NCBI GenBank assembly: GCA_028720205.1
Contig: JAQYLE010000065.1
Span: forward strand, 127 to 64,126
DNA length: 64,000 nucleotides
Direction: 5' to 3'
DNA from: Clostridia bacterium
GTDB lineage: Bacteria > Bacillota > Clostridia > Christensenellales > Borkfalkiaceae
A model generated the notes under the pieces. It had not been told where the DNA came from and did not search any database. It was given only the letters and a program-made list of their open reading frames with translations. Shown here piece after piece: positions 41,071 through 64,000 of the stretch. Position numbers and translations under genes: made by a program. How positions within the stretch are numbered: the stretch's first letter is position 1; every line of letters starts with the position of its first letter.

Positions 41071-41084
41071 CCGAATTAATAGAC

Positions 41085-41123
41085 AAAATTCCCGACGAGC
41101 AATACCCGTCGGGAATTTTTTTT
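41085..41123. terminator. Bidirectional intrinsic terminator
   Basis: 11-bp stem AATTCCCGACG / CGTCGGGAATT with a 9-nt loop, T8 on the plus strand and A4 upstream (T4 on the minus strand). It lies 11 nt from the stop of the 1644-aa minus-strand gene. Confidence 0.8.
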
Positions 41124-41133: not shown

Positions 41134-44100
41134 TTATTCCGTTTTTTCGGTAATTCCGGCAACGGATTGTTTATCTTCGGAAAGTCGGATAACAAACGTT
41201 TTCCCGCCCGCCGAAACGGTGTAGGCGTTCGTTTCTTCGTCGTACTCGCTTTCCGCAACGAGATAAACGGCGCCGTCCAGGCAGAACAATACGGGCGTTC
41301 CGGAAGAATCCGCCTCTACGTACGTTTCGCCGTCCGCGGCATACAACACCTTCATCGTTTCCGTTTCCACGGTTACGGCGCGGAACGTTGCCAGAATCTC
41401 TTTGTCCTCGCCGATTTCCACGCCCGAATTTTCGGTAAACGTAAGAGTGTAATACACGGAAGAAGTGATTTTTCCGCTATCGTCCGTCGTACGCGAGATA
41501 TAGCGGACGGAGGTTTTGTCGCCCGATATAATCGCTCCGCTGTACGCGATTTCCACGCCGTCTTTACTCAACGATATGCCGCGGAACGTCCCCTGCGACC
41601 ACGAGGGATTATCGGTGGCGACAATGCGTTCCGTTATCACCTTGTACCCGTCCTCCGTTTGCAGCGTTTCGCTTCTGAGCAGAAAATATACGTAATAACC
41701 GTACGTATTGCGGTACGCGGGGTGTTTTCTCAACGCGAAGAACAAACGGTAGGTATATCCGTCCGCCGCCGTGAATCCGGCGCAGTATACGCCGTTGGTA
41801 TCGTCGTATTCGAAGTCGGCTCCGTCAAACGAGATCACGTTGCCTTCCGCGTCGTACATACGCGATCCTTCGCCGAACGAACCGGAAATATAACTCGACG
41901 TTTCTTCTCCTTCTTCATCGTAAACGTAATTCACGGAAACGTAACCGATGTCGTTTTTGTACGAATTGGCGTACGAAGCGCCCATCGTAACGTAATATTT
42001 ATAATAATTATCCAGATACGCGTAAGCGGGCGCGGAGCCGATGCGGCGCAGCGCCGTTACGGTATACGTGCTTAAACTTTCGCCGTAATCGTTTTCGCCG
42101 TTATACGAAATTTCTATATCGAAGCGGTACCCCGATACCGTTACGTACATATGCGTATTGCCGGATTCGTCTTTTTCCCTGGTTACGTAGGCGTTTACGT
42201 TTTTGCCGTTGACCAGCACTTTTGCCTCAACGGTAAATTCATCTTTTCCCGAAGGCGAAAAACTGAGCGTTTCCAGCGCGTGTTTTGTTGCCGACCCGGT
42301 GATAAGCGCCGCAGGGTATTTATTCTTTCCCTCTTCCTCGCGCTTAAACTGAATGGCGAAGCCGTTGTTGGAATAATAGGTCTGCCCGTTATATTCCTTT
42401 ATGTTGTCGAATGCGCCGAAGTTTTCTTCTACAAACCCGTATTCGCTTGCGTCGGGATCGGACGCGTTCTGCCTGTAAATCAGCACGTCGTTGTTAACCA
42501 CGTTGTAATAACAGCGTTCCGTGCCGTTGAATATCGCAAATCCGTACTGCGAGAACAGCAACGAATCCAGTTCTTTGGTGTAATATCCCCTCGCCGTAAA
42601 TTTCACGGGCGTCGCCGTGCCTTTCGCCGTATCGTATTCGTAAATGCACGCGTCTTTGGCGTCGTCGGTAACGAAGTAAAGCAACTTTTCGGTAATCAGC
42701 GTGTATTTGCCCTCCTGTCTGTTCCCGTCCCCGTCCGCTTTCACCGCATTGCCCGCGTTATCCAAAATCAGCACGGACCAATCTTTTTCGTTTACGTACG
42801 TTTTCACGATTTCTTCGTGCACGATCACGAGTTCTCCGTAAACGCTGCTCTCATAGGCGTATTTTTCCGTACCTATTCTGAATTCGCCGCCGTACGTTTC
42901 GTTCGATTTTACGTAAGAATAGGTCACTTTGTCGCCGTCCGTAACGTACGTTCCCTGCCCCGTATAAGTTCTGTTTCCGCTTCCGTCAAGCACAAACACG
43001 GAAAGTTTACCGTACCCGTCGAGTTCGAAAAATTCGTCGAACGAAACCGATCGGTTGTCCGATGTAACGTAAACGCCGTATTCCGCGCCGCGCATCGTAA
43101 ACGAGTAGCCGTTTAAGGTGAAATAACGGTAAGTATCGCCGATTTCCATGCGCACTTCGTTTTCCGAAACAAGCACGTACGCGCCCGTGGAAGAATTGCC
43201 GTCTTCGTCGGTGAATTGCGCGCGGAAAGCAAAGCCGTCCAGCGAAAGCGCGCCGCCCTGCGACGAAACGTAATTGTTATCGTACGCGCCGTCGTATACC
43301 GCAAACGCCATGCCTTTGGAATAAGTAAGGCGGATAAATTCGAACGTTACCGTTCCCGAAGCGAAGCGTAAAATTTCAGCGCCCGATTTCGAAGTTTTCC
43401 CCGTTTTCGTCACCGTGCCGTTACATGCGCCGAGGCTTTCGGAATAGTAAACCGCGCCGCCGTTGCCGTCGGTGGAAAGATATTCCTTTTCCGTTACGGT
43501 GCCGTCCGCGTTATAGCGGTTCGCGCGGTAAGGCGCTTCCGAAAGAGCGGCAAACGTATGCGCGCCGTCGTCGATTGTAAAGTACAGCGTATCCTTCCCC
43601 GCAGTAAAGGTAATTACGTTATCGCTCTGTTTGTAAGAGCCTACCGACGTCGTTCCGCTTGCGGTATATGCCGCCCTGTCGGAAAAGAGCGCCAGCGTAT
43701 CTTCGCCCGAAACGTACGTCGTGCCCGTATACGTCGTTCCCTCTTCCGTTACGTACGAAAACCAATAGGTTACGTTATAAGAGGCGGTAGAAACGGCGGC
43801 GCTGCCCGTACAGAAACGGACGGAAAGCACGCCCGAAACATCTATCGGGTTGGTAAGCACGTCGGCAAGCGAAGCGGCGTCGCCGAACGTTTCCGCCGTG
43901 TAAGTATACAGTTTCGTCGCTTCGTCAAACAAATAACTTCCCTCGGATACAAGCACGAATTCACGGGAGGAAGTATAACCGTACAACTTTGCCCTGCCTT
44001 GCGCCGGATCGTCCGTAACTAAAAGCGGAGCGTAATATACGTTGTCGCCGCCTTTGTAATAATATTCGCCGTACCCCGCCGCCTTTACTTCCATCGTATA

Positions 44101-46068
44101 TACGGTTTCTCCGTCCGCGGCTCCTTCGCCCTCGCCTTCGCCTTCGCCGATGATTCCGCCGGAAGATTGCGTCGATTTCGTTATGAGAAACTTATACGTC
44201 TGTTTTTCCGCTTCCAGCGTTAAAATCGTTCCTCCGAACACGGAAGGCGCCACGGTGTACACTCCGCTTACGTTTACGTTTCCCGCCGTATAAGTTGCCG
44301 AATACATGCCGTCTGCGGTAAGGGTTGCGCCCGCGCCGTTTTCAAACGTGCGGTCGAACTCTTCGTCGTAAAACATATAACACGTTTTTCCGCGGATTTT
44401 CATCAGCCGCGCGGTTCCCGCCGCACCGCCCTCGGCGTTCGTCAGCGTAAGCGTTTCGCCTTCCAGCACGTAATAATAAGTAGCGGTTCCGGTTACGCCG
44501 TTCTGCGTCGTATGATAGGCGGCGGTGCCGAATCCGTTCAGTTCCAGTGAATAATAGTTTTCCAGATAATACGTGAGCGCGCCGTCTTGCACAACGCCTC
44601 TGTAAACGGTACCCATACGGTATTCCTCTTCGTTTCTCACGCGGAATACCGAAGTTTCTATATCCTCGATCACCACTTTTCCAAGCAGAAGAACAAGCGT
44701 TTTTCCCGCAAGATCGCCGCTGTCAAAGGAGGCTATGTACCTGCCGTTTTCGTCCAGGCGGTAAGTGCCGGCGGAAACCGACGAACCCGCCTTGTACCTT
44801 ATGCCGTTGTATTCGTCGAAGTAAATCAACGTGTCCGTCTGCAACCCGTCTCTCACCGTGTACAACGTGCTCTGAACGTTCGCCCTGTCGCCGTCGAAAT
44901 ACGCAAACGAGCCGTCGTCGTTGATTCTCCCCGCCAGCAGAACGTCGTCGCGATCGTCAGTAAAGGTAAACTCTTTGCGCGGAGCGGCGTATTCGCCTTT
45001 AAACAGCAGTCCGCCGCGCGAAAGATACGCCGTAGTTTGGTCGTTTTCGGGCAGATAGATATAATCGTCCCCGCCGAACACGTTGACGTAACCTTTCAGC
45101 CACACGGCGCGAAGCGTGGTGTTTCTCTTCACAACGATCTGATCGGGTGCGGTTTCTTCGCCCGTATTGTACACCGAAATCCCCGTAGAATACGCGGTTC
45201 CGTCGGACGTATCTTTCCAGCCGACGAGCCAATATCCCTTTTTCGTAAAAATATCGCCCGAAGCCGTCAGCGTTTCGCCGTATTTTGCCTCCGCCCTGTA
45301 AATTTCGTCCGCGTCGCCGTCGGGATCATCGGAGCGGAACGCGTAAACGTATTCCTTTCTGTTAAAATACCGTCTGAATATGTTCAGCGTAGTATCCGCG
45401 GAAACGGTAAGCGTTTTCACCGTGTCGGACTTGACGACTTCTTCAAATCCTTCAATCTGGTCGGAAAAGGTAAACGGTTCGTGTACGTACGCGTACCCCT
45501 CAACCGTTTCTTTTTCGTAACCGTCGTCGCCGAGATTCTGTTTGTAAACTTCCGCCGTATACGCCGCCTGATATTTGGCGGTAAGGCTGAGATCGGCGGC
45601 GGGCATCGTCGCCGCGTCGCTTACGGCTTTGTCGCCGTTGAACCACGCGCCGAAACGCAGTCCTTCTTTTTCCGCCGTTACGTTGCGCAACGCCTCGGCG
45701 AGGTTTGCGCCCGCTTTCAGCCATAATTTGCTTTGCGCCGCTATGCCTCCGTCGGCGTTGAGAGTAAGAGCGTACAATTTTTCCCATCTGGCATAGAAAG
45801 TGGCGTTTTTATCCGCCGAAATTTTCGCCACGGCGCCACCTGAAAACGCCGCGTCCGTATACCAGCCCTCGAAACTGTATCCTTCCCTTTCGGGCACGGG
45901 AAGCGTTATTTCCTCCCCTTCCGCCGCTTCGATTCCCGCAATCGAAATTTCGCAATTCGTTTCAAAAACGTATTCGTATTTTTGTGAGGTTGATTTACAA
46001 GAAATCAACGCTGCGGAAATCAAACAACAGAACAAGCCGCTCAGTAGTAATTTTCCGATTTTTTTCAT
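41134..46068 (-). CDS. Giant lipoprotein (1644 aa): N-terminal InlB-B-repeat (Flg_new) modules, then ~1300 aa of unassigned sequence
   Basis: Signal peptide plus lipobox (AALISC). Flg_new-like modules (REGYSFEGWYTD...ATFYARW; GLRFGAWFNG...; KKGYWLVGWKD...TLRAVW). The remainder is Y/T/G-rich and beta-looking, with a (GE)4 tract near aa 640. SD AAGGAG. Confidence 0.85.
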   Translation of the reverse strand: MKKIGKLLLSGLFCCLISAALISCKSTSQKYEYVFETNCEISIAGIEAAEGEEITLPVPEREGYSFEGWYTDAAFSGGAVAKISADKNATFYARWEKLYALTLNADGGIAAQSKLWLKAGANLAEALRNVTAEKEGLRFGAWFNGDKAVSDAATMPAADLSLTAKYQAAYTAEVYKQNLGDDGYEKETVEGYAYVHEPFTFSDQIEGFEEVVKSDTVKTLTVSADTTLNIFRRYFNRKEYVYAFRSDDPDGDADEIYRAEAKYGETLTASGDIFTKKGYWLVGWKDTSDGTAYSTGISVYNTGEETAPDQIVVKRNTTLRAVWLKGYVNVFGGDDYIYLPENDQTTAYLSRGGLLFKGEYAAPRKEFTFTDDRDDVLLAGRINDDGSFAYFDGDRANVQSTLYTVRDGLQTDTLIYFDEYNGIRYKAGSSVSAGTYRLDENGRYIASFDSGDLAGKTLVLLLGKVVIEDIETSVFRVRNEEEYRMGTVYRGVVQDGALTYYLENYYSLELNGFGTAAYHTTQNGVTGTATYYYVLEGETLTLTNAEGGAAGTARLMKIRGKTCYMFYDEEFDRTFENGAGATLTADGMYSATYTAGNVNVSGVYTVAPSVFGGTILTLEAEKQTYKFLITKSTQSSGGIIGEGEGEGEGAADGETVYTMEVKAAGYGEYYYKGGDNVYYAPLLVTDDPAQGRAKLYGYTSSREFVLVSEGSYLFDEATKLYTYTAETFGDAASLADVLTNPIDVSGVLSVRFCTGSAAVSTASYNVTYWFSYVTEEGTTYTGTTYVSGEDTLALFSDRAAYTASGTTSVGSYKQSDNVITFTAGKDTLYFTIDDGAHTFAALSEAPYRANRYNADGTVTEKEYLSTDGNGGAVYYSESLGACNGTVTKTGKTSKSGAEILRFASGTVTFEFIRLTYSKGMAFAVYDGAYDNNYVSSQGGALSLDGFAFRAQFTDEDGNSSTGAYVLVSENEVRMEIGDTYRYFTLNGYSFTMRGAEYGVYVTSDNRSVSFDEFFELDGYGKLSVFVLDGSGNRTYTGQGTYVTDGDKVTYSYVKSNETYGGEFRIGTEKYAYESSVYGELVIVHEEIVKTYVNEKDWSVLILDNAGNAVKADGDGNRQEGKYTLITEKLLYFVTDDAKDACIYEYDTAKGTATPVKFTARGYYTKELDSLLFSQYGFAIFNGTERCYYNVVNNDVLIYRQNASDPDASEYGFVEENFGAFDNIKEYNGQTYYSNNGFAIQFKREEEGKNKYPAALITGSATKHALETLSFSPSGKDEFTVEAKVLVNGKNVNAYVTREKDESGNTHMYVTVSGYRFDIEISYNGENDYGESLSTYTVTALRRIGSAPAYAYLDNYYKYYVTMGASYANSYKNDIGYVSVNYVYDEEGEETSSYISGSFGEGSRMYDAEGNVISFDGADFEYDDTNGVYCAGFTAADGYTYRLFFALRKHPAYRNTYGYYVYFLLRSETLQTEDGYKVITERIVATDNPSWSQGTFRGISLSKDGVEIAYSGAIISGDKTSVRYISRTTDDSGKITSSVYYTLTFTENSGVEIGEDKEILATFRAVTVETETMKVLYAADGETYVEADSSGTPVLFCLDGAVYLVAESEYDEETNAYTVSAGGKTFVIRLSEDKQSVAGITEKTE

Positions 46069-46137
46069 ATCTGTCTCCTTTTCGCAAATCGGCGAAAAAG
46101 CCGTTTTAAAAGCGTTTTTTAGTTCGAAAGTCCTGCG

Positions 46138-48933
46138 CTATTCCGCTTCGGCAACCTTCCATACCGCATAGAGCGTTGTGCCTGCGGGCGCCTTAGTCAA
46201 CTCGTCTTTCGTATACGCGGGTTCGTTTGCCGCGCTATCCGTCGCCCAGCCGACAAATACGTAGCCTTCCCTCGTGGGCGCCGAAACGCCGCCCGTCGCG
46301 TTGGCGTTTGACAACGTATCCTGCGTAACGGTGACGGAAACCACGTACGTTCCGTCCTCCGAAAGCGCGCACCCCCACACCACGGGGCGATACGAAGAAT
46401 TGAATCGGGCGTTCCAGTCGGGCTGTATCTGCGGCGCGGAAGTATAAACCGTCATCGCATTGCAGCCGTAAAAGGCGTGCGAGCCGATTGTTGCGATCCG
46501 TCCGTCCAGAACAAGCGCCGTAACGCCGCTCATTCCCTTAAACGCATAGTTGCCTATCGATTTCACCGAAGCGGGAATCGTAAGAGCGGTGAGATTTTTC
46601 ATCTCGTAAAAAGCGTAATCGCCTATTTCCTCCACCCCGTCCGCTATTACGACGCGTTCTACGTTGGGGCATTTGTAAAACGCCCTGTCGCCTATGATTT
46701 TTAAGGAAGAAGGCACAAAAACGCTTGTCAACGCTTCGCAGTGGGCAAACGAGGAATCGCCGATTTTTTCCACGCCGTCGCCTAAATCGAGCGAGGAAAG
46801 AGCGGCGCATTTGTAAAACGCCCTGCCGCCTACCGTAGAAACCGAATCGGGAAGCGACACGCTCTGTAAAGAAACGTTGTTATAAAAAGCATAGTCGCCT
46901 ACGGTTTTTAAAGATTCGCCGAACGTAACGGAAGAAAGATTAGCGCAATCGTAAAACGCGTAATCTCCTATCGCGCTAACGCTTGTGCCGCCCATATCGA
47001 CGCTTTCCAGCGTAGCGCACTTGTAAAACGCGGATCTGCCTATCGTAAGCAACCGCGTGGGCAGGGTTACGTTGAACAGGGAAGAACAGCCGTAAAACGT
47101 ATAGTCCTCGATATAACGGAGATTTCTGTTTAACGATACCGTGGTTAAATTTACGCAGCCGTAAAACGCGCCGCGCCCTATATACCTCACGTCGTTCAGT
47201 CCGGTAAGACTTTTTACCGTGACGCAATTATAAAACGCGTAATCGGCAATACCCGCCGTATCCGCATTCAGCATCGCGGTGCTCGAACGCATGTTGTTGT
47301 AGCCTACCACCCAATTTCCCGCGTACACGACGCCGGAACTCGTCGGTTTTTTCCACAGCGCCGTGTTCTTAAACGCATACGTGCCTATCGAAGTAACGCT
47401 GTCGGGTATGATGGAACTGCCTGCCAGCGCGCTGTTATCCAATAAAGAACACCCGTAAAAAGCGTACGAGCCTATTTTCTTCAACCCCTCGCCGAACAGA
47501 ATCTGACTTAACACGGGGCAATTGAAGAAAGAATATTCGCCTACGCTTTCCACGCTGTTGTCGTACGTGTTGATTCTGTACAGTACGTTACATTCCGCAA
47601 ACGCATAGTTCCCTATCGCTTTCAGCGACTGCGGCGTTTTTACTTCTATCAGTTTCGGCGCGCCCGCAAACGTATAATCCGCAATGCCGAAAGTATCCGC
47701 GCGCAGGGTATCCACGCCTATTTTTTCAAGATTCTTCAACGTTTCTTCCGTGCAGTATATCAGCCATTTATCGGCGTACACGAACGGTTCGCCTTGCGTC
47801 TTCGCTTCGTTGAAAAACTTCGTGGCGTGAAAAGCATACCCGCCTACGTGCTTTACGGTATCGGGGATAGATACTCCGTCAAGCGCTCCGTCGCCGTAAA
47901 AACAGGCGTAGCCGATATCCGTCAGACCTTCCGGCAACGTCGCTTCGGCAATCCGCGCGCACTCCGAAAAGGCGTATTCGCCCAGCGTTTTCAGTTCGCC
48001 GTTTGCAGAAAACGCAATTTCTTCCAGCGCGGAACACTTATAAAACGCGTTGTTTCCTATGCTTTCCGTTCCCGCCCCGATCGAAACAAAAGAAAGCGAA
48101 GTATCCCCCGTAAACGCGTAGTCGCCTATGCTTATAACGCTATCGGGAACGGTAACGCTTTGCAGCGCGGAACAATCGGAAAAAGCGGAATCGCCTATCG
48201 TTACGATATTATCGCCTATTTCTATTTCCGTCAGCGAACGGCAATAGGCAAACACGTAATTGTTCAGCGCCGTTACGCCCTCGGAGATATTTACGGAAGC
48301 CAGCGAACGGCACGATTGAAACGCCGAAACGCCAAGATAAGTTACGGAATCGGGCATTTCCACGTAAGTCAGTTTAGGGCAATTGTAAAAAGCGTTGTCG
48401 CCGATATAGGTAACGTTGCTTCCTATCGAGATGCCCTCCACGCGGCCGCTTCCCTTAAACGCCGCGTCGGCGATTTTCGTTACGGGTTTTCCACGGTAAG
48501 TTTCTCCTACGATAACGTTTTTCGAAGCGGAACCCACTTTGGTGATTTCGTATTCGGTATTGTTTTTTATGTAGGTATACACGCATCCCGTTTCGTAATC
48601 TTTATGAAACTGAATAGTTTCCGACCATTCGGAATCCTGATGCGTTTTTCCGTCGCCCACGGCTTTTATCGCGATGTCGTAATCCCCTTCCTCCAATTTG
48701 GCGAGGGAATACGAAGCCTTTCTGGAAGTCGTCAGCGTTTCTATGCCGGTTTCCACGTTTCTGATGCTGACGGAATAATGTTTAGCGTTCTCGTCCAGCG
48801 TCCAGGAAAGCGTATTGTTTTCGTCCAGAACGATGCCGTAAGGAGTAGCCAGCATGTTTTTCTTTCCGCATGCCGCGAGAAACGCGCACAGCGAAGCCAA
48901 CAGTATTAAATTAACCCAACGTATCTTCTTCAC
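46138..48933 (-). CDS. BspA-like leucine-rich-repeat (LRR_5) lipoprotein with C-terminal InlB-B-repeat
   Basis: 931 aa. GTG start with SD GGGAGG. Lipobox LAAC. One Fn3-like module (TLSWTLDENAKHYSVSI). About 650 aa of ~23-25-aa repeats (IP.SVT.IG..AF..C..L). C-terminal REGYVFVGWATD...TLYAVW. Confidence 0.88.
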   Translation of the reverse strand: MKKIRWVNLILLASLCAFLAACGKKNMLATPYGIVLDENNTLSWTLDENAKHYSVSIRNVETGIETLTTSRKASYSLAKLEEGDYDIAIKAVGDGKTHQDSEWSETIQFHKDYETGCVYTYIKNNTEYEITKVGSASKNVIVGETYRGKPVTKIADAAFKGSGRVEGISIGSNVTYIGDNAFYNCPKLTYVEMPDSVTYLGVSAFQSCRSLASVNISEGVTALNNYVFAYCRSLTEIEIGDNIVTIGDSAFSDCSALQSVTVPDSVISIGDYAFTGDTSLSFVSIGAGTESIGNNAFYKCSALEEIAFSANGELKTLGEYAFSECARIAEATLPEGLTDIGYACFYGDGALDGVSIPDTVKHVGGYAFHATKFFNEAKTQGEPFVYADKWLIYCTEETLKNLEKIGVDTLRADTFGIADYTFAGAPKLIEVKTPQSLKAIGNYAFAECNVLYRINTYDNSVESVGEYSFFNCPVLSQILFGEGLKKIGSYAFYGCSLLDNSALAGSSIIPDSVTSIGTYAFKNTALWKKPTSSGVVYAGNWVVGYNNMRSSTAMLNADTAGIADYAFYNCVTVKSLTGLNDVRYIGRGAFYGCVNLTTVSLNRNLRYIEDYTFYGCSSLFNVTLPTRLLTIGRSAFYKCATLESVDMGGTSVSAIGDYAFYDCANLSSVTFGESLKTVGDYAFYNNVSLQSVSLPDSVSTVGGRAFYKCAALSSLDLGDGVEKIGDSSFAHCEALTSVFVPSSLKIIGDRAFYKCPNVERVVIADGVEEIGDYAFYEMKNLTALTIPASVKSIGNYAFKGMSGVTALVLDGRIATIGSHAFYGCNAMTVYTSAPQIQPDWNARFNSSYRPVVWGCALSEDGTYVVSVTVTQDTLSNANATGGVSAPTREGYVFVGWATDSAANEPAYTKDELTKAPAGTTLYAVWKVAEAE

Positions 48934-49015
48934 AGCGTCCTCCCGTAACGGTTGAAATGAATGTTCTTCCGTTTTTCGCGCCCGTTTGATTTCGCGCGGG
49001 GCGCGCCCGCGCGCT

Positions 49016-49043
49016 TGTTATTTCTCATTTGTTATTTCTCATT
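49016..49043. repeat. Perfect 14-bp tandem duplication spanning a stop codon
   Basis: TGTTATTTCTCATT at 49016-49029 is identical to 49030-49043. The stop of the 933-aa gene (49032-49034) lies in the second copy. Confidence 0.95.
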
Positions 49044-51833: not shown

Positions 51834-51848
51834 ACGCTCTCGTCCTCC

Positions 51849-54682: not shown

Positions 54683-54706
54683 CTTCTGCTCCCGCTTCCG
54701 CGCCCG

Positions 54707-55699
54707 TTATTTTTTGTATTTTTTGCTTACCTCGTCCACGATCAGTTTTATCGCGTCGTCGGCAGTCACGCGCTCCGCCACCGCCTCGAAGTTCATCTTG
54801 ATACGGTGCCGCAAAACGGGGAAGGCGAGTTCTTCTATATCGGAATACGATACGTTAAATCTTCCTTTAATCAACGCAAGCACTTTTCCTGCGGAAATCA
54901 GCGCCTGACCCGCACGGGGAGACGCGCCTACGCGGATATATTGCGTAGCGGCTTTGGCGGCGCATTCGCCAACGGGGTGGGTAGCCGCCGTCATAATCAT
55001 GGCGTAACGCAGCACTTCTTCCGCCACGGGAATTTTATTCGCCGTTTCGCGCATTTTTAAAAGTTGTTCGCCCGTGCAGGCGCAATCGGCAACTTCCGCC
55101 ATCGTCTTTTGCGTCATGCTTACAATCTGCATCAGTTCGTCCAGCGAAGGATCGGGCACGATGAGTTTAAACATAAAACGGTCCATCTGCGCTTCGGGCA
55201 GAGGATAGGTGCCGTCCTGCTCGATAGGGTTCTGCGTGGCAAGCACGAAGAACGGCTCGTTGAGTTTTCTCGATACGCCCATTACCGTTACGGTGTGTTC
55301 CTGCATGGCTTCCAGAAGAGCCGACTGCGTTTTGGGCGTGGCGCGGTTGATTTCGTCCGCAAGAATAATATTGCTGAAAATAGGGCCCGGCTGGAATTTA
55401 AACGTGGAATTCCCCTTTTCGTCCTTTACGATGATGTTCGTGCCCGTAACGTCCGCAGGCATTAAATCGGGCGTAAACTGAATACGCGAGAAGGGCAGAT
55501 CGAACACCCTGCCAAGCGAGCGTACCAGACGGGTTTTACCAACCCCCGGCACGCCTTCCAGAAGAACGTTGCCGCCCGCGATCATCGCGATAATCGTACC
55601 GCGCACCACTTCCTGCTGCCCGATGACGTCCCTCGAAACCTGTTCGAAAATGTTTGCGCATTGTTTGCTGAATTGTGCTATATCGTTTTCCGTTACCAT
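54707..55699 (-). CDS. MoxR-family AAA+ ATPase
   Basis: 330 aa. Walker A GVPGVGKT, Walker B ILADEINRATPKTQSALLEAMQE, LATQNPIEQDGTYPLPEAQMDRF, typical of the AAA_3/MoxR family. Confidence 0.93.
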   Translation of the reverse strand: MVTENDIAQFSKQCANIFEQVSRDVIGQQEVVRGTIIAMIAGGNVLLEGVPGVGKTRLVRSLGRVFDLPFSRIQFTPDLMPADVTGTNIIVKDEKGNSTFKFQPGPIFSNIILADEINRATPKTQSALLEAMQEHTVTVMGVSRKLNEPFFVLATQNPIEQDGTYPLPEAQMDRFMFKLIVPDPSLDELMQIVSMTQKTMAEVADCACTGEQLLKMRETANKIPVAEEVLRYAMIMTAATHPVGECAAKAATQYIRVGASPRAGQALISAGKVLALIKGRFNVSYSDIEELAFPVLRHRIKMNFEAVAERVTADDAIKLIVDEVSKKYKK

Positions 55700-55755
55700 T
55701 TTTTTCTACCGTACTTCCTGTAATTATTTTTTTTAGCCGTTGCCGATAACAAGGT

Positions 55756-56799
55756 TTATTTTGCTATCGTCTTAAAATATTCGTTGATAAGTTCTTTTTC
55801 TTCGTCGGAAAGATCGTCGTTTTCGTTCATTCTTTCCAGGGCGTCGTCGTAGGCGTTCTGATACACCTGCCCGCCGTAATACGTTTGGCCGTCGTATACC
55901 TGATTGTGTTCTTCGTACGTGCCGCTTGCGCCTCGGTTGGGGTCGCCCTCGCCGTTTATATCGCTTTCGCCTTCGCCGCCGACCTCCCCGGGCAAATCGC
56001 CGGGTTTGTCGCCCTCCCCGGGCATATCCCCGTTGCCGCCCGCCTCGTCGATAGGCAGAAACACGGCGTAGTACGTAACGCTTGCGCGGATATTGCCGTC
56101 TGCCCTGTACGGATCGTCGGAGCCGTCGGACCAATATACGAAAGCAAATCCGTCCTCGGGCACGGCAAGCACGGGAGAAGCGTCGAATCCTTCTTCAACC
56201 ACCTGAAAAATATCGCCTTCGATCATGCCCTCGCCCATATACACTTCGTACGAAACTTCAAACTGTTTCGCCGGCTGATTATCGATGACTTCGCCGAGCG
56301 TTTCCGAGCCGCTTGCGATCGTTCCGTTGGCGGCAAGCGCGGAGACGGTGGTCATGCCTATGCCGCAGACGGCGGAAAAGACAAGCGCGACAATCATAGG
56401 AACGGACACGGCGATTTTAATGAGTTTTTCGCTGATTCCGTTGGAAGTAAGCGCTTTTATCGTATCCGCGCGTTGCATGGCGGCGATTTCGGAATTTTCC
56501 TTTTCGAGTTCCGTCATGGTAAGCACGCGCTCTTCCAAACCGAGTTTATCGATGCGTGCGGCGGTCTGTTTTGCCGTAGGGCGGAACTTTTTAAAATAGA
56601 AAAGCGCCCCCGCGCCTCCCGCGACGACAACAAAGACGATCGCGCCCGGCCACACCGCTTTCGCGGCAAACATCCACGCGATGAATTCATAGAGAAGTAA
56701 TGCCGAAAAGCCGAAAACCGCCCCGGCGAAAGAGGCTTTGATAACCGCCTCTTTCACTAACTTCGAGCGGTACTTTTTTAATATGTTTTTTAAGTCCAT
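55756..56799 (-). CDS. Membrane protein (3 TM) with InlB-B-repeat-like ectodomain and acidic G/E/D/P-rich tail; N-terminal part reminiscent of DUF4175
   Basis: 347 aa. TM1-TM2 hairpin, AARIDKLGLEERVLTMTELEKEN segment, TM3, then ...VPEDGFAFVYWSDGSDDPYRADGNIRASVTYYAVF and GNGDMPGEGDKPGDLPGEVGGEGE. The DUF4175 label is a recollection, not a search result. Confidence 0.75.
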   Translation of the reverse strand: MDLKNILKKYRSKLVKEAVIKASFAGAVFGFSALLLYEFIAWMFAAKAVWPGAIVFVVVAGGAGALFYFKKFRPTAKQTAARIDKLGLEERVLTMTELEKENSEIAAMQRADTIKALTSNGISEKLIKIAVSVPMIVALVFSAVCGIGMTTVSALAANGTIASGSETLGEVIDNQPAKQFEVSYEVYMGEGMIEGDIFQVVEEGFDASPVLAVPEDGFAFVYWSDGSDDPYRADGNIRASVTYYAVFLPIDEAGGNGDMPGEGDKPGDLPGEVGGEGESDINGEGDPNRGASGTYEEHNQVYDGQTYYGGQVYQNAYDDALERMNENDDLSDEEKELINEYFKTIAK

Positions 56800-56827
56800 A
56801 ACAATCCCTTTTTTTAAGCATAGTACC

Positions 56828-56857
56828 CATTCCGCGGCGGATGCCGCGAAATGGGCA
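56828..56857. other. Intercistronic GC-rich hairpin without U-tract
   Basis: CCCATTCCGCGG-CGGATG-CCGCGAAATGGG (11 of 12 bp) between the giant LRR gene stop (56896) and the next start (56799). Confidence 0.6.
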
Positions 56858-56895
56858 AGATTAGTAATTTGTTCGCTGATTGTTGCTACGGGCGG

Positions 56896-59800
56896 TTATT
56901 CGGTTACCGCCTTATCGTACACAACGGTGATTGTTGCTTTAGTGGCTGTGAGCAAAGGTTTCAACCCGGGAAGCAGATCTTCTTCCGAAGCGTACGGCAC
57001 GTGTACCGTAACCGTGCATCCGGCGAACGCGTTAGCGTTTACCGAAAGAACCGATTCGGGAAGAACGATTTCGGTAAGCGCCGTGCATTTCTGGAATGCG
57101 TTTGCCGGAATCGTGGTAATGCCGTTACCGATCGTCACGCTTTCCAGCGCCGTGCAACCGGAGAACACGCTGCCATTGAACGAGGTGATCGATCCGGGAA
57201 GGTCTATGCTCTTCAATGCCGTGCAATTGTAGAACGCAGAAGCACCGATAGTTTTAAGCGACTTGGAAAGTTGAACGCTTTCCAACTGCTTGCAACCGTA
57301 GAACGCGTAAGAACCGATGTTCGTCACCGTATCGGGGATTACAACGGAAGTGAGCGCGCAGTTGCGGAAAGCATAATTACCGATCGTTTGCAACTCTTCG
57401 CCTAAGGTAACGCTTGCCAGTTTTGTACAACCGTCAAACGCATTCGTACCTATCGTCTTCACCCCTTCCGACAACTCCGCCGAAGTAAGCGAAGTGCAGC
57501 CGTTAAACGCATAGTTTCCTATTGATTTTACGCCCGCGGGGATATTGACGCTTTCCAATGCGGAACAACCTTTAAAGGTGTTGTTAGGGATTTCGGTAAC
57601 GCTGTTCGGAAGAACCACCTTCGTTATCTTCTTGCAATTTTCAAAAGCGTTGCTGTATAACGTAACGCCTTCGGCAAGCACCACTTCGCCTTCAACGAAT
57701 GCAGGGCAGTAAACCAACTGCTCTTCGATAGTGTAGATCCAGCCGTTTTCGCTCTTATACGTAACGTTCGCGGCGTCGATGACGATGTTCGTAAGTTTCG
57801 TGCAACCGGAGAACACGCCTATCCCCAGCGAAGTTACGCTTGCGGGAATTACAACCTTTTCCAAGGCGGTACAACCGCTGAACGCGGAATTATATACCGT
57901 CTTTACCGTATCGGGGAATACGAACGATTCCAACGCCGTGCAGCCCGAGAACGCTTCCTGACCGAAGCCCGTAACGCCTTTCAGCGTAATCGACTTCAAA
58001 GACGTACATCCGGAAAAGCACCATTTGCCAACGTAATCCAGGCTACCTTCAAAAACGATGTCGGAAAGCGCTTTGCAGTTTCTGAATACGTTATTGTTGG
58101 AAGTAGCCGCCGTTCCGTTACCGAGTTTAACGCCTTCGGGAATCACCAGATTATTGAGCGACGTGCAACCTTCAAAAGCCGAAATACCTATGGCTTTCAC
58201 GCTCTTAGGAATTTCCAGCGTTTTTAACTTCGGACAATTCTGAAAAGTAGAACCGGGTATCGCAGTTAGTCCTGCAGACAGGGTTACTTTTTCCAGTTGA
58301 GCACAATCTTTAAACACATATCCGGCAACGGTCACGTAACCGTTTTTGAAAGAATCGCCGCCCAAGGACGTAACGCTGTTCGGGATAACGATTTCTTTCA
58401 GCGAATTACATTTTGAGAATACATACGTGCCGAACGCAGTTACTTCGCCGCTGAACGTTACCGAAGTAAGTTTTGTACAGCCGAAGAACATATAGTTGCC
58501 GAGCGTTGTAAGTCCCTCCGGAATATTGATAGAAGTTAAGCCAACGCAATCTCTGAACAGATACGTGCCCACTTTGGTAAGCGAGGCGGGTAACTGAACG
58601 TTGTTAAGCGCCGAGCAGGAAGAGAATGTGTTGTTTCCAAGAGCGGTCACTCCATCCGGAATTTTTATAGAGGTAAGTTTCGAACATTTTTCAAAAGCAT
58701 TGGCGCCTATTTTTATAAGTTCGCTGTTTTCGCCAAACGTAACGGAGGTTAAACCGGTACAATTCGAAAAGGCGGAATCGCCAATTTCACGCACGCTGGC
58801 GGGGATAGAGACGGAAGTGATTTGCGTTTTGCCGCTGAACACGTACGCGGAAACCGTTTCTACACCGTCCGGAATGATATACTCGCCTTCCGCCGTAGAA
58901 AGAACGTAATACAGTTCTTTGCCGTCCTTGCTCATAAGCGCCGTATCCAGCAATTCTACATTCACGTTTTCGGGAGCGATCGTCAAGGTTTTAATGGAAC
59001 CGCAACCCAGAATCACCGAGGGAATGTTTGTTACCGATTTAGAGAACACAACCGTTTCCAACGCCGTGCAGCCGTTGAAGATTTTGCTGCCCACAGAAAT
59101 TTCCGTTTCCTTTTCGGGGAAGGTGAACGAGGTAAGCGCAACGCACTTTTCAAAAGCCCCGTCGCCGATTTCCTTGATTGCCGTACCCTCTGCAAACGTG
59201 AAGGAAGCCATCTTTGCCGCGTTATAAAACGCGTTATTGCCTACCTTTTCCACCGAAGCGGGCAAAGTAAACGAAGTAAGATTAACGCAACCGTAGAAGG
59301 CGCCTACGCCTATCGTCTTTAACTGCGAACCGGATTCGATGGTAAAGTTCGTAATCGCGCCGCAACCGTAGAACGCCATAGCGTCTATCGTTTCCACCGA
59401 AGCGGGCAAGGTAAACGAAGTAAGTTTCGCCGTGCTCGGGGCATTAGGACTTGTGCTGTAAAACGAATAGAACGCCTCCTGTCCTATTTCGGTAAGTTGA
59501 CTGTTCGGCGCGATATTCACCGTAACAACCTGCGCATAGTAGAACGCTTTATTCTTGATTTCCGTTACCGTAGAAGGAATGTTTACCGTAGTGATACCGT
59601 TGACCACTTCTTCGCGGTAAGGACCTTGCATAATGTCGACGATAGCAAACGCATACGAACCGATCACCGTGGTTCTTTCGGGGAAAGAGATTTCCCCAAG
59701 CGAACGGCACCCTACGAATACGCCGTAAAACGAAGGAGGTCCGCCTTCTTCTCTCCCGTCCGCAATCACCAACGGGTTGGAAGTGTTGCCTTCTTCAAAC

Positions 59801-62800
59801 TCTACTTCGCGGAGCATGGTGCACTTGTAGAACGCCATATTCCCGATGAGCGAAACCGTATTGGGAATATACACCTTGTTCAACGAAGTACAGTTGGCAA
59901 ACAGAGATTCTCCCACTTCGGTAATGCCGCTCGGCAATACCACTTCTTTCAAGCCCGTGCAACCCTCGAACACATTTTTGCCGAAGGCAAAGTTGGTTAC
60001 CGCACCGGCAAATTCCACTTTGGCAATGCCTTTGTTCTGCGCAAACGCGCCGCTTGCCACTTTCGTTACGTCGGCGGGAACGGCAAACACGCCTTTGTTG
60101 CCCGTATTGGCAACGGGGCAATAGAACAAGGTGGCGTTTACGCCGCTTTCGTTTTTCTCGTAAAGCACGCCGTTCACGGAAGCGTATTTCGCGTTTTGCG
60201 CCGCCACGTTCACCGCGCTGAGCGCCGCGCTTCCCGCAAATACGTTTAACGCGCCGTTCGTATCGGTTCCTAAAACCGTTACGCTGGCAGGTACGTTGAA
60301 GGAAACGAGCGAGTTGCAGGAAGCGAACGCCTCGCCGCTTATCGTTTGCACGCCTTCGGGAATATTCACCGTAGCGAGCGCCACGCACCCCTTAAACGCT
60401 GCCGTCGGCACCGTTTCAACCGCGGGAATGCTTACCGTGGCAAGTTTTTCGCAGTCTGCAAACGCGCTTGCGCCGAATTCGCCGACGCGGGCGGGCAAAG
60501 CCATCTGCGTAATCGCCGTTGCCGCAAAAGCATTCGCGCCGATTACAAGATTTTCCTTTCCGCCTTCTTCAAATTCCACCGTAGCAAGATTCTTGCAGTT
60601 TGCAAAGGCGTAGTCGCCTATGGAAACGATATTTTTGCCTATGGTAATCTTAGATAATTTCTTGCCGTAAAATACGTTCGCGCCGATTTCCGTAACGGTT
60701 GCGGGTATTACGTAATCCCCCGTCTGAGAGGAAGGATAATACACTATTCTGGTAACGGCTTTATCGAAGATGACGTTTTCGATAACGGAATAATTCGGGT
60801 TGCCGTCGGCAACGGAAACGTAAGAAAGTTCCGTACCGAACGCGCCGTTAATATCGAGCACGCCGCATTCCGCGCCGATATTGAGTTTTTCAACGTAATA
60901 TACGGGCGTTTTATCCGTAGTGCCGAACGCGGCGTTTTCAAACGTGATATCCGCGCCGCAGTTCACCGTTACTTCCGTAAGGTTCTGGGTATTGCCGAAT
61001 GCGTTTTTGGCAAGCACGGAAAGATTTTCGGGTAAAACGATAGCGGAAAGCGCCGTACAACCGTAAAACGCAGATTCGCCTACGGTAAGTTTTTCGTTAT
61101 ATTTGTCTCCTTCGAATACCGCCGAAGCAAGTTTCGTACAGCCGGAGAACGCCTGCGCGCCGATTTCCGTTACGTATCCGGGTACAACCAGCGCAGTAAG
61201 TTTCGTACAGCCGAAGAACGCTTTATCCGCTACGGAATTAACGCCCGCAGGTATGGTATAAGCGCCCGTTCTTCCAACGGGGCAGAACACGATCTGCGTG
61301 CCGTCTTCGTTGCAAAGCACTCCGTTTTTCGAGGTATACGCGCCGCCCGTGCCGTCTACGTTTACAATGGCAAGCGCCGAGCATTGGGTGAAGATGTTGC
61401 TGTTAAACTCGGTAAGACGCGCGGGAAGATCGATAGAAGTGAGCGCCGTGCAGGATCTGAACGCGTTTTCGTCTATCGTCAGCGCCCCGGCGCTTTCGCC
61501 TTCCGCAGGCGCTTCAAACACCACTTGCGTCAGTTTTCTGCTGTAATAGAATGCGTTGGAGTTAATCGTGGTAACGCTTGCGGGAATCGTAACTTTGGTA
61601 ATCGACGAACTCTTGAAGATAGCCACGGGAAGCGTTTCCACCCCGTCGGGTATGACGACTTCGCCCGATCTGCCCTGCGGGAAGTATTTAAGTTCCACGC
61701 CGTTGTTTACGTTATCGTAAATAAGAATACCGTCTACGGACGTGTACGCGCCCTTGTCGTTGCTGCCCGTTTCGTATACGTTTACGCTGTACAGTTTCGA
61801 ACAACTCAGGAACGCGGTACCCGTTTCAATCAGTTTCACCGTATCGGGAATATTCACCGTTACAAGATTTCTGCAAAGTTGGAAAGCGCTGCCTTCCACG
61901 GTGGTAACGGGCTTGCCGTTGTATTCCGTAGGCACCGTCACTTCGGAAACGAGATCGATCGATTTGCCTTTCGATAACGAATACGCGTTGCCGTTTTCGA
62001 TTTCGTTAAAGGTAAACACCGTTACCCATGCGGCATAGAAAGTTCTGCCGTCTTCGTTGTAATCCCATACGGCAAGGCTGTTTCCTTTTTCGTCGGTATA
62101 TCTCGTGCCTTGCGCGTTAGGTTGCGAATACCAGCCCGCGAACGCCTTTGCAGCGTCGGAATTGGCTACGGGCATCGCAACGGTATAGTCGCGCTTATAC
62201 GTTACCTGCGCCGTCGTGGGGTTGTCGCCCGCGTCCGCGTCGCCGAAATCGAGTTGAACGGTGTAATCCTTGGGAGTCCACGCCGCATACAGCACTATGT
62301 CGGTAGTTTCTGAGAACGCAATATCGCTATACAACGCGCCGTTGTTCGCCGCGCCGCCGGGGAGCGTATACCAACCGGCAAAATCGTACCCTGCGGCTTG
62401 CGTTTCAGGCAGCGTAACGGGGTCGCCCACCGCTTTATACTGCGTTTTCACAGCCGCGCCGCCGCGCGCGTCGAAGATGACGGAATAAGCGTACGCTTCC
62501 ACGCTCGCCCATTTGATTTCGCTGTTGTTTTCGCCGATATAATATACGTCGATTACGTTTACGCCGCTCTTCGTCAACGCCACAGCCGCGCCGAACGCGC
62601 CGTCGGTAACGGTTGTCGCCGCAACGCCGTTCACTTTCACCGCGTATCCCGCGGCGTTCGCAACGGGCTTCCACGTTACCGTACCGTTCGCGTAAGAAGC
62701 CGCGGAAACGCCGTCGCCGTAACTCACCGACAACGCTTCGCTGTATACGGAACTTTCGCTTTCCGTAGCGGCAACGGCTTTCACCGATACCTCGTACGTG

Positions 62801-64000
62801 CCGAAGCCGTTCACGTAGCATTCGTTCGTCAGCGTGAAGGAAACCGTCGTATCTTCCGCGTTCTCAACCGCTACCGTCTTTTCCACGGCGCCCACTTTGA
62901 TTTTATACGCGGTAGCGCCGCTCACGGCGTTCCACGTAACAACGTTATTCAGCACCTTGAAATTCGAAGGCACGGCAATTTTTGTTTTGGTATACGTAAC
63001 GCCTGCCGCTTCGGAAGAATTGTAGCCTTTCGTCTGCGCCGTCACTTCCACGGAAACCGTGCCCGCGGCGTAATTTTTCAACGAATATTTCGTAGCCGCG
63101 CCCACGTTTACAACGTCGGTACCGGTTGCGGTAGTGATTTTAACGATATATTCCGCGGCGTTTTCCACGGCGTTCCACGAAACTTCGTCCGTCGCCGCGT
63201 CTATTTTAAGATTTGTCGCCGCCTGTAACTCTCTGTTTACGGTATAGTAAGCCACGGAAGAAGCATAACCCTTAGCCGCCGCTTCAACGGTGAATTTGAT
63301 TCCGCCCGGCTGCATCGCGCAGTTGGCAAAATTAAAGTATACGGAAGAACCGTTGTCTACGCGGGTATGGGTGTGCCCTTCTTCGCCGCAATCCACCGTA
63401 ACGTAATATTTCTGCGCGTTTTCTACGGGAGCAAACAGCAATACGGAAGGTTCTATCACCTTAAACGAAGTAACGCGCGCAAGCGCTTTGTTTTTATAAT
63501 ACGCCGTCGCGGTATTGCCGTTTACGGTTACTTCCACAACGTAATCGCCCGCCGCCTTCGAGGCAAAATCGTACGCATACGTAGTGCCGCCCACCGTTGC
63601 GGGCGCCGCCGCGCTGCCGTCCGGCGCGGTGATCTTAACCGAATAACTCGCGTTTACGCCCACGGGCGCCCACGTAACGCCTTCCGCGTTTACGGAAACG
63701 GAGGTATATCCGTCCTCCGCCCATACGGCGTAAAAATCCGTATCGGCGGAAAGCGCTTCTCCGCCGTATTTATAGGTGAGTTTCGCCGCCGACTGATAGT
63801 CGCTTACCCACCAGCCGATAAACGTCTTGTCCCCCGCGGGAACGGGCAGATCGAACGCTTTGCCGCCTATCGTCCGCTTGGTTTGCAGCGTTTCCCCGTC
63901 GGAAATAAAGGTAACGGTATATTCGGCGTCGTTCGCGTCGCCTTCGGTAAAGCAGGCGTACAACGTTACGTCCGACGTTACGGGCGCAGCGAAATCGTAG
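56896..64000 (-). CDS. Giant BspA-like LRR surface protein, 5'-truncated by the window edge (at least 2367 codons visible)
   Basis: The frame stays open to position 64000; the ORF-track start at 63963 is an internal TTG within a Flg_new repeat (...VTSDVTLYACF). Three complete Flg_new modules and five Fn3-like modules (W..V..A..Y.VK periodicity). About 1600 aa of LRR_5-type repeats (about 57000-61900). No LPXTG or C-terminal TM. Confidence 0.9.
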   Translation of the reverse strand, partial: YDFAAPVTSDVTLYACFTEGDANDAEYTVTFISDGETLQTKRTIGGKAFDLPVPAGDKTFIGWWVSDYQSAAKLTYKYGGEALSADTDFYAVWAEDGYTSVSVNAEGVTWAPVGVNASYSVKITAPDGSAAAPATVGGTTYAYDFASKAAGDYVVEVTVNGNTATAYYKNKALARVTSFKVIEPSVLLFAPVENAQKYYVTVDCGEEGHTHTRVDNGSSVYFNFANCAMQPGGIKFTVEAAAKGYASSVAYYTVNRELQAATNLKIDAATDEVSWNAVENAAEYIVKITTATGTDVVNVGAATKYSLKNYAAGTVSVEVTAQTKGYNSSEAAGVTYTKTKIAVPSNFKVLNNVVTWNAVSGATAYKIKVGAVEKTVAVENAEDTTVSFTLTNECYVNGFGTYEVSVKAVAATESESSVYSEALSVSYGDGVSAASYANGTVTWKPVANAAGYAVKVNGVAATTVTDGAFGAAVALTKSGVNVIDVYYIGENNSEIKWASVEAYAYSVIFDARGGAAVKTQYKAVGDPVTLPETQAAGYDFAGWYTLPGGAANNGALYSDIAFSETTDIVLYAAWTPKDYTVQLDFGDADAGDNPTTAQVTYKRDYTVAMPVANSDAAKAFAGWYSQPNAQGTRYTDEKGNSLAVWDYNEDGRTFYAAWVTVFTFNEIENGNAYSLSKGKSIDLVSEVTVPTEYNGKPVTTVEGSAFQLCRNLVTVNIPDTVKLIETGTAFLSCSKLYSVNVYETGSNDKGAYTSVDGILIYDNVNNGVELKYFPQGRSGEVVIPDGVETLPVAIFKSSSITKVTIPASVTTINSNAFYYSRKLTQVVFEAPAEGESAGALTIDENAFRSCTALTSIDLPARLTEFNSNIFTQCSALAIVNVDGTGGAYTSKNGVLCNEDGTQIVFCPVGRTGAYTIPAGVNSVADKAFFGCTKLTALVVPGYVTEIGAQAFSGCTKLASAVFEGDKYNEKLTVGESAFYGCTALSAIVLPENLSVLAKNAFGNTQNLTEVTVNCGADITFENAAFGTTDKTPVYYVEKLNIGAECGVLDINGAFGTELSYVSVADGNPNYSVIENVIFDKAVTRIVYYPSSQTGDYVIPATVTEIGANVFYGKKLSKITIGKNIVSIGDYAFANCKNLATVEFEEGGKENLVIGANAFAATAITQMALPARVGEFGASAFADCEKLATVSIPAVETVPTAAFKGCVALATVNIPEGVQTISGEAFASCNSLVSFNVPASVTVLGTDTNGALNVFAGSAALSAVNVAAQNAKYASVNGVLYEKNESGVNATLFYCPVANTGNKGVFAVPADVTKVASGAFAQNKGIAKVEFAGAVTNFAFGKNVFEGCTGLKEVVLPSGITEVGESLFANCTSLNKVYIPNTVSLIGNMAFYKCTMLREVEFEEGNTSNPLVIADGREEGGPPSFYGVFVGCRSLGEISFPERTTVIGSYAFAIVDIMQGPYREEVVNGITTVNIPSTVTEIKNKAFYYAQVVTVNIAPNSQLTEIGQEAFYSFYSTSPNAPSTAKLTSFTLPASVETIDAMAFYGCGAITNFTIESGSQLKTIGVGAFYGCVNLTSFTLPASVEKVGNNAFYNAAKMASFTFAEGTAIKEIGDGAFEKCVALTSFTFPEKETEISVGSKIFNGCTALETVVFSKSVTNIPSVILGCGSIKTLTIAPENVNVELLDTALMSKDGKELYYVLSTAEGEYIIPDGVETVSAYVFSGKTQITSVSIPASVREIGDSAFSNCTGLTSVTFGENSELIKIGANAFEKCSKLTSIKIPDGVTALGNNTFSSCSALNNVQLPASLTKVGTYLFRDCVGLTSINIPEGLTTLGNYMFFGCTKLTSVTFSGEVTAFGTYVFSKCNSLKEIVIPNSVTSLGGDSFKNGYVTVAGYVFKDCAQLEKVTLSAGLTAIPGSTFQNCPKLKTLEIPKSVKAIGISAFEGCTSLNNLVIPEGVKLGNGTAATSNNNVFRNCKALSDIVFEGSLDYVGKWCFSGCTSLKSITLKGVTGFGQEAFSGCTALESFVFPDTVKTVYNSAFSGCTALEKVVIPASVTSLGIGVFSGCTKLTNIVIDAANVTYKSENGWIYTIEEQLVYCPAFVEGEVVLAEGVTLYSNAFENCKKITKVVLPNSVTEIPNNTFKGCSALESVNIPAGVKSIGNYAFNGCTSLTSAELSEGVKTIGTNAFDGCTKLASVTLGEELQTIGNYAFRNCALTSVVIPDTVTNIGSYAFYGCKQLESVQLSKSLKTIGASAFYNCTALKSIDLPGSITSFNGSVFSGCTALESVTIGNGITTIPANAFQKCTALTEIVLPESVLSVNANAFAGCTVTVHVPYASEEDLLPGLKPLLTATKATITVVYDKAVTE

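Follow-up and report, generated by a model that had tools for sequence, protein, structure and literature searches.

The window analysed here is a stretch of 64,000 nucleotides (nt) from Clostridia bacterium (assembly GCA_028720205.1, contig JAQYLE010000065.1). Positions 41134–64000 are filled by eight minus-strand genes, as seen from the list of open reading frames (ORFs) and their translations. The genes are numbered G1 to G8 in transcription order, and all coordinates are window positions (Table 1). They encode a MoxR-type ATPase and a DUF58 protein together with three membrane proteins, two of which carry VWA domains, and three very large surface proteins. Recomputation of the ORFs bears out exactly the eight genes, their coordinates and the gaps between them given by the original prediction, an earlier reading of this DNA from its letters and ORFs; the gaps from G1 to G8 are 96, 56, 24, −4, 15, 98 and 69 nt. 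The plus-strand ORFs inside the block all overlap G1–G8 and look like shadow frames. The other 41 kb of the window contain no relative of any of the eight proteins.

The Pfam families named in advance, AAA_3, DUF58, BatA, VWA, LRR_5 and Flg_new, were confirmed in the expected genes. The proposed Bat-type core is supported: MoxR, DUF58, a protein combining BatA_N and VWA, and a second VWA membrane protein were all found.

Table 1. Features of the cluster and their positions in the window
Feature	Position	Strand	Basis
G1, giant LRR_5/Flg_new surface lipoprotein (predicted)	56896..64000, open beyond 63999	-	2367 codons to window edge
Hairpin after G1 stop, probable attenuator/terminator	56824..56857	-	15-bp perfect stem, fold energy
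G2, cluster-specific membrane protein with three transmembrane segments, 347 aa	55756..56799	-	ortholog alignment and Pfam
G3, MoxR-type AAA+ ATPase, cytoplasmic, 330 aa	54707..55699	-	AAA_3 and AAA_lid_2
G4, DUF58 protein, cytoplasmic VWA-like MoxR partner, 297 aa	53789..54682	-	DUF58 match
G5, BatA_N + VWA membrane protein, 647 aa	51849..53792	-	BatA and VWA_2 matches
G6, double-VWA membrane protein, 933 aa	49032..51833	-	Pfam, AlphaFold2 model
G7, LRR_5 + C-terminal Flg_new lipoprotein (predicted), 931 aa, GTG start	46138..48933	-	Pfam, lipobox
G8, lipoprotein (predicted) with N-terminal Flg_new array and ~1300-aa all-beta body, 1644 aa	41134..46068	-	Pfam, lipobox, AlphaFold2 model
Intrinsic terminator closing the cluster	41075..41123	-	16-bp stem and U-rich tail
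aa, amino acids.

Conservation of gene order

Uncultured Clostridia of gut and rumen encode hundreds of full-length homologs of the G6 protein, about 50% identical to it. We collected 88 related loci: five by look-up of the exact protein, 80 from a one-genome-per-species collection, in which 363 stretches encode a G6 relative, and three anchored on G1. Every ORF of these loci was then compared with the eight window proteins.

Each of the 88 loci shows, up to the ends of its contig, the whole or an uninterrupted part of one of two gene orders. The first, canonical order is G1-G2-G3-G4-G5-G6-G7-G8, with all eight genes present in 39 loci. The second, G1-G2-G5-G6-G7-G8, lacks G3-G4 at this slot and is seen in nine loci. 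The adjacency is thus not unique to this genome. It persists at considerable sequence divergence (Table 2), MoxR being the most conserved protein of the block.

The genes flanking the block vary from locus to locus. Examples from the downstream flanks are GlnA/ANTAR, DapB/DHDPS and an amidohydrolase, while upstream of G1, in three loci, KsgA, polyphosphate kinase or FeoB is found, with a gap of 600–750 nt in two of the three. Since the flanks vary and the order is kept, G1 opens the block and G8 closes its core. The tight spacing also recurs: the 4-nt overlap of DUF58 and G5 is seen in L004, L005, L086 and L087, the G5/G6 gap is 12–17 nt in relatives, and in L005 G6 and G7 overlap by 4 nt.

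Because the adjacency recurs in all 88 loci while the flanks differ, it is well supported that the eight genes are one functional unit. That part of the earlier one-unit claim stands. The cluster is probably not a single operon, given the hairpin after G1 and the fact that MoxR-DUF58 is dispensable at its slot (see below). With housekeeping genes in the flanks, inheritance looks vertical. A search of full texts open to searching turned up no description of a MoxR/DUF58/VWA combination with LRR (leucine-rich repeat) proteins, BspA or lipoproteins of Clostridia.

Table 2. Identity of each protein to its relatives, and perfect stems (8 bp or longer) in the 100 nt following the stop codon. Identity ranges compare relatives with the window, the near-identical relative L086 being left aside
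Gene	Identity to window	Loci with stem	Stems with U tract
G1	25-55%	27/51	12
G2	32-65%	5/56	1
G3 (MoxR)	74-90%, highest in block		
G4 (DUF58)	59-74%		
G5	39-72%	0/81	0
G6	45-69% in nearly all loci; ~92% in one near-identical relative	9/84	0
G7	36-67%	9/76	3
G8	29-55%	32/65	15
Random 100-nt windows (control)		0.9%	

The membrane proteins and the cytoplasmic pair

The G3 gene encodes the MoxR ATPase, with matches to AAA_3 (E 3e-62) and AAA_lid_2; its Walker A and Walker B motifs are invariant in the orthologs. G4 is a DUF58 protein (PF01882, E 3e-30), in which DxSxS is invariant in 60 sequences, and its stop codon overlaps the G5 start by 4 nt. The sequence motifs pointed out earlier, GVPGVGKT, ILADEINR and VDCSASMG, are present, and they too are invariant in orthologs. 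Direct reading of the translations gives no transmembrane (TM) segment in MoxR or DUF58. The DUF58 gene adjoins moxR in the window and in all loci of the canonical order.

The G5 protein matches BatA (PF07584) and VWA_2 (PF13519). Its metal ion-dependent adhesion site (MIDAS), D-x-S-x-S and a later D, is invariant in 80 sequences. G5 and G6 have a common layout: TM1, a K/R-rich loop, TM2, a large domain, a C-terminal TM segment and a basic tail. Moreover, G5 is homologous to the N-terminal region of G6, comprising the loop, TM2 and the first VWA domain (hhalign, E 1e-5).

In G6, Pfam finds two VWA domains; a match to GATase1_like is below the threshold. The AlphaFold2 (AF2) model has a mean predicted local distance difference test score (pLDDT) of 86.8 and TM helices at residues 11–30, 39–59 and 894–913. 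The order of parts is a BatA_N-like TM hairpin, VWA1, a beta-sandwich, an alpha/beta domain, VWA2, a second beta-sandwich, the last TM segment and a conserved basic tail. Foldseek returns VWA proteins alone, including BatB 3ibs (TMt 0.73) and 4jdu; these are matches to single VWA domains, and no homolog of the whole architecture was found by Foldseek. Across 86 sequences the MIDAS residues D80, S82, T147 and D173 of the first domain and D436, S438, S440, T511 and D540 of the second are invariant. So are R36, R39 and R41 of the cytoplasmic loop and R912, K913, F914, W918, H920 and E921 at the C-terminal end.

By the positive-inside rule, the VWA domains of G5 and G6 would face outward. This agrees with the AF2 model of G6, with the homology between G5 and G6, and with the mapped topology of the Borrelia BatA homolog BB0173, for which three TM helices and a periplasmic VWA domain were established experimentally (PMC5700661). 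Since both the MIDAS and the cytoplasmic residues are invariant, extracellular metal-dependent ligand binding and an interaction at the cytoplasmic face are therefore likely to be under selection. The partner at the cytoplasmic face would be DUF58/MoxR.

G2 has three TM segments. Conservation is seen in its cytoplasmic segment and in a motif at the C-terminus; the protein further contains a divergent InlB B-repeat, which faces outward, and a linker that is acidic and rich in Gly. Residues D84, R91, T94 and Q109 between TM2 and TM3 are invariant; the cytoplasmic motif (FRPT…R.D.LGLEER.LT) could not be assigned to a family. A Flg_new-type module had been claimed for this protein as well. The claim holds for the family, with Flg_new_2 in 27 and Flg_new in 10 of 48 orthologs, but not for the window copy, which has no Pfam match at E ≤ 0.01, the best being Flg_new_2 at E 0.071. 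A link to DUF4175 was also considered. It is weak in six of the 48 orthologs (best E 1e-4), was reproduced in none of 15 scanned individually, and stays an unconfirmed lead.

The large lipoproteins

The G1 gene encodes the largest protein of the cluster. Pfam finds LRR_5 in 15 stretches (E 3e-294), plus Flg_new. By comparison with the ortholog P0121 (86% identical, 2527 aa), about 160 N-terminal residues, the lipobox among them, fall beyond the window edge. The ortholog has the N-terminus MKKRLKAWVILSLSAVLCAFLGLIGCSKQ, with LGLIGCSKQ in the lipobox region, and a lipobox-type motif is present in 103 of 120 G1 homologs. The lengths of the orthologs range from 2488 to 4113 aa.

G7 is likewise dominated by LRR_5 (E 8e-158, six stretches), plus Flg_new, and has the lipobox LAACGKK. 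Its orthologs, of 906–1058 aa, occupy this position in every locus that reaches it. In G8 Pfam finds Flg_new in three stretches, and the lipobox is LISCKS. The orthologs are about 1630–1785 aa long, length and position being kept across loci.

Because a lipobox is present in the 86%-identical ortholog and in most homologs, G1 is predicted to be a lipoprotein, and all three large proteins, G1, G7 and G8, would then be self-anchored. The earlier suggestion that the giant protein, having no LPXTG or TM anchor in its visible part, is docked by the platform is not supported on that ground.

The body of G8 comprises residues 445–1644. A sequence search among 1.84 billion protein clusters yielded 271 representatives, nearly all of them full length (1630–1860 aa) and in the same register. 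Hence the body appears to be a family found only in this cluster. The AF2 model of the body (pLDDT 88.9) is entirely beta. It has no global match in the PDB by Foldseek (TM-score ≤ 0.11), and a sequence search of the PDB was empty. Structural homologs were sought without an assignment, the only hits being local matches with low TM-scores to beta-propeller and Tc-toxin-like proteins. We also considered a module other than Flg_new common to the G1 N-terminus and the G8 body, both having Y/G-rich motifs; in hhalign comparisons the Flg_new parts alone match (96% and 91% probability), whereas matches to the body are below 10%, and this candidate was rejected.

Since the lengths of G7 and G8 are fixed and the G8 body is unique to the cluster, these two proteins behave as structural parts rather than as variable adhesins.

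Transcription units

The intrinsic terminator noted earlier at 41085–41123 is real: it has a 16-bp stem (−24.3 kcal/mol, z −4.8) and the tail UUUUGU. The claim that it is the only convincing one overlooked a second strong structure. This hairpin, after the G1 stop codon, has a 15-bp perfect stem (−31.9 kcal/mol, z −4.0) and no U tract. Among related loci, stems are frequent after G1 and G8 and rare or absent at the other junctions that were counted (Table 2). The hairpin following G1 is kept in position, not in sequence, in L001–L012 and other loci. Because it follows the G1 stop, G1 and G2–G8 are probably transcribed as separate units; alternatively, read-through after G1 is attenuated.

The 98-nt gap between G6 and G7 contains a GC-only palindrome at 48993–49013, CGCGCGGG…CCCGCGCG. 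Taken as a whole, the gap is not more stably folded than its shuffled sequence (z −0.3), and it lacks a U tract; the palindrome is probably not a terminator.

Mobility of the ATPase pair, duplicated clusters and an optional ninth gene

In the neighbour-joining tree of G6, the window and L086, both of the canonical order, fall inside a clade whose other members have no MoxR-DUF58 between G2 and G5. In L006 the two genes lie directly after G8 (20714–22678). In L003 (20752–20856) and L008 (20689–20799) the start of moxR directly follows G8, and the contig ends shortly after. L001 keeps a C-terminal remnant of DUF58 in front of G5 (E 0.003). The ATPase pair can thus move, and after moving it tends to stay with the cluster.

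Three metagenome-assembled genomes (MAGs) contain two clusters each: MAG254 (L078 and L080), Reindeer_2_mag_77 (L072 and L083) and Lapin-021 bin27 (L051 and L070). In MAG254 a cluster without MoxR is found together with a canonical one (L078, L080), which hints that MoxR may act in trans, although mis-binning is possible. In the G6 tree, L028, L053, L080 and L083 group together as a deep clade of paralogs.

Of the 58 loci reaching far enough, 23 have a ninth gene on the same strand directly after G8, for instance L001 (21714–22802), L010, L011, L014, L018, L019, L062 and L074; it is not present after G8 in the window. Its product, of about 2400 aa, combines Peptidase_S8, PA, fn3_5 and LRR_5 domains and resembles a cell-envelope proteinase. 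Possibly it is a dispensable component with a processing or accessory role.

Comparison with known systems

The closest known counterpart is the Bat operon of Bacteroides (batI of B. fragilis), Borrelia (BB0170–BB0176) and Leptospira (batABD), with the same core of MoxR, DUF58, BatA_N/VWA and a second VWA protein. In both cases the VWA domain lies outside the cytoplasmic membrane, experimentally in BB0173 (PMC5700661) and by prediction here, and the first VWA domain of G6 superposes on BatB 3ibs and 4jdu. However, G6 is a protein of 933 aa with two VWA domains and extra domains, that is, of another architecture, and it scores 20 bits with the NCBIfam model BatB_Lepto (cut-off 350). Further, Pfam finds no BatC (tetratricopeptide repeat, TPR), BatD or BatE (SH3) domain in the eight proteins. 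Instead, the cluster has, in fixed order, its own Flg_new membrane protein and three giant lipoproteins. Finally, the host is presumably a single-membrane Firmicute, so that the ectodomains would be exposed at the surface and not periplasmic. Hence the cluster appears to be a module of the Bat type whose partners, a fixed set of giant lipoproteins, are specific to this lineage, a combination previously undescribed in the searchable texts.

For the Bat loci themselves, no specific function has been demonstrated according to PMC5700661 and PMC3557215, and the latter's abstract has the aerotolerance or oxidative-stress phenotype disputed in Leptospira. The genes RL3499–RL3502 of Rhizobium leguminosarum likewise combine a MoxR/DUF58 core with membrane partners, and a title cited in PMC5700661 links them to cell envelope integrity and morphology. 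On the strength of that title and general background, they differ in being four genes only, without giant LRR or lipoprotein partners.

LRR_5 arrays make up most of G1 and G7, as in the BspA-type adhesins BspA, LrrA and HupY/LrrG, and the Flg_new modules of G1, G7 and G8 are likewise those of InlB B-repeat proteins. Matches to the HupY/LrrG model (NF047961) are partial, 256 and 209 bits against a cut-off of 1250. Both groups differ from the proteins described here, which have lipobox anchors rather than LPXTG or GW, and whose length and position are kept over deep divergence, locked to the MoxR/VWA module. With the internalins the likeness is confined to the B-repeat (Flg_new), the LRRs being of the LRR_5 type and the anchor a lipobox.

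A looser analogy is that with integrins, which also have an extracellular MIDAS/VWA domain, short conserved cytoplasmic tails and a cytoplasmic regulator. There is no homology beyond the VWA fold, and the regulator here would be an AAA+ ATPase with DUF58. In MoxR-vWA-beta-propeller systems the vWA protein is cytoplasmic, whereas the VWA proteins of the cluster are membrane proteins with ectodomains, and PADLOC found no proteins of such a system.

A candidate surface platform and the alternatives

The most plausible reading, which we hold tentatively, is that G2, G5 and G6 form a membrane platform that holds the three co-encoded lipoproteins and is remodelled by MoxR/DUF58; its topology, the contacts between VWA domains and lipoproteins, the role of ATP and the external ligand are what we infer. 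G2, G5 and G6 would be the multi-pass part, with large ectodomains turned outward, one Flg_new-like and three VWA with intact MIDAS. G1, G7 and G8 would be tethered in the same membrane as partners of the MIDAS sites, which would hold or organise them into a fixed LRR_5/Flg_new binding surface. MoxR and DUF58 would stay in the cytoplasm, where they would engage G5 and G6 at the basic loops and tail that are invariant in these proteins, and their use of ATP would serve assembly or remodelling of the platform. G1 would be expressed partly alone, and G2–G8 as one transcript.

Several observations weigh against such a platform. Self-anchored lipoproteins are not forced to need VWA proteins. LRR_5 proteins are common in these genomes, with extra copies in some flanks, where reading by hand gave three extra LRR-like ORFs. 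In roughly half of the loci a terminator-like hairpin lies between G1 and the remaining genes. Lastly, MoxR-DUF58 is absent from the canonical slot in nine loci, and at least three clusters (L001, L002/L088, L007) have no MoxR or DUF58 anywhere in the sequenced cluster; either the ATPase acts there in trans, or it is not obligatory.

The first three of these points would also fit an alternative, namely that two independent functions, a Bat-like envelope-maintenance module and ordinary LRR_5/Flg_new adhesins, are adjacent by descent. So would the fact that Bat-type modules elsewhere function without LRR proteins (PMC5700661). However, mere neighbours would hardly keep all eight genes and their order down to 45% identity while the flanks are not kept. 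Nor does this alternative agree with G7 and G8 trailing G6 at short gaps with rare hairpins (9/84 after G6, 9/76 after G7), with the G6/G7 overlap in L005, with the re-attachment of MoxR-DUF58 to the far end of the same cluster, or with the confinement of the G8 body to this context. We consider it unlikely.

MoxR ATPases are generally seen as chaperone-like maturation factors working with VWA partners. Given this background, the MoxR/DUF58/VWA proteins could be a transient biogenesis or quality-control chaperone for the export or folding of giant lipoproteins rather than a permanent platform, and the exceptional size of the clients (G1 of 2500–4100 aa) would suit such a role. On the other hand, the VWA domains with their invariant MIDAS are outside the membrane and the ATPase is inside, in some clusters G5/G6 and the lipoproteins are retained with no MoxR next to them, and scans with Pfam and NCBIfam-type models gave no similarity to secretion components. 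A chaperone of this kind seems to us just as unlikely as two independent functions.

A bolder variant of the platform is a new kind of ATP-regulated adhesion device, in which MoxR/DUF58, via the invariant tails and loops of G5 and G6, would switch MIDAS sites that engage or release the lipoproteins or their host ligands. Integrin inside-out signalling would then have an analogue in prokaryotes. We consider such a device distinctly unlikely.

Very doubtful is an ATP-driven machine for adhesion release or surface motility, with giant "leg" proteins moved or switched by the internal ATPase, in the manner of integrin inside-out signalling or, as a concept, of the gliding machinery of Mycoplasma mobile. 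Three giant surface proteins are indeed co-encoded with such an ATPase, and the proteins with VWA ectodomains have invariant tails in the cytoplasm. The LRR_5 repeats also match in part the model of Gli349 (NF045861), the gliding "leg" protein of M. mobile, but this is a repeat-level match: G1 and G7 score 157 and 87 bits against a cut-off of 1750, in a model repeat region of about 75 residues (e.g. G1 2120–2196). Moreover, nothing in the cluster is evidently a force-transmitting element, some clusters lack MoxR, and all hosts are uncultured and offer no phenotype.

A mobile genomic island or a MoxR-VWA anti-phage or conflict system, suggested by the match of G3 to the bpMoxR model (E 1e-8), is effectively refuted: that match is secondary (35 bits versus 209 for AAA_3), PADLOC gave generic AAA matches only, there is no integrase, repeats or composition shift (GC content 0.48–0.56, like the rest of the window), the order is conserved, and inheritance, with housekeeping flanks, looks vertical.

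Implications

MoxR-DUF58-VWA operons of the Bat type occur widely, among others in Bacteroidota, spirochetes and rhizobia. Stress tolerance, envelope integrity and virulence have all been linked to them, and the ligand of their outward VWA/MIDAS domains is an old question (PMC5700661, PMC3557215). Here the module is locked to three lipoproteins and one membrane protein over at least 88 loci, which provides named candidate partners. If the adhesion device switched by MoxR/DUF58 were real, it would be the first concrete mechanism and client set for operons of this type.

The cluster also probably encodes a major surface structure of a gut group about which little is known. These hosts are uncultured, yet prevalent in the guts of humans, ruminants, rabbits and poultry, and the cluster may be relevant to host attachment, to antigenicity and to isolating or labelling these organisms.

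Host and genomic surroundings

G8 is 100% identical to an NCBI protein of a MAG labelled Candidatus Borkfalkiaceae bacterium, a name placed by NCBI taxonomy in Christensenellaceae/Christensenellales. The rest of the window contains housekeeping and sporulation genes, including those for GerA/B/C, RuvAB, Dxr and Ffh. An operon for a germination receptor of the GerA/GerB/GerC type is located at 36122–40481 on the plus strand, convergent to the cluster; this operon makes a spore-forming host probable. A non-coding gap of 650 nt (40482–41133) separates the GerC gene from the cluster. The gap contains no credible small ORF, and Rfam gave one match, far below the threshold. On its plus strand, at 40575–40602, is a perfect promoter of the sigma-70 type (TTGACA, 16 nt, TG-TATAAT), directed toward the 3' end of G8.

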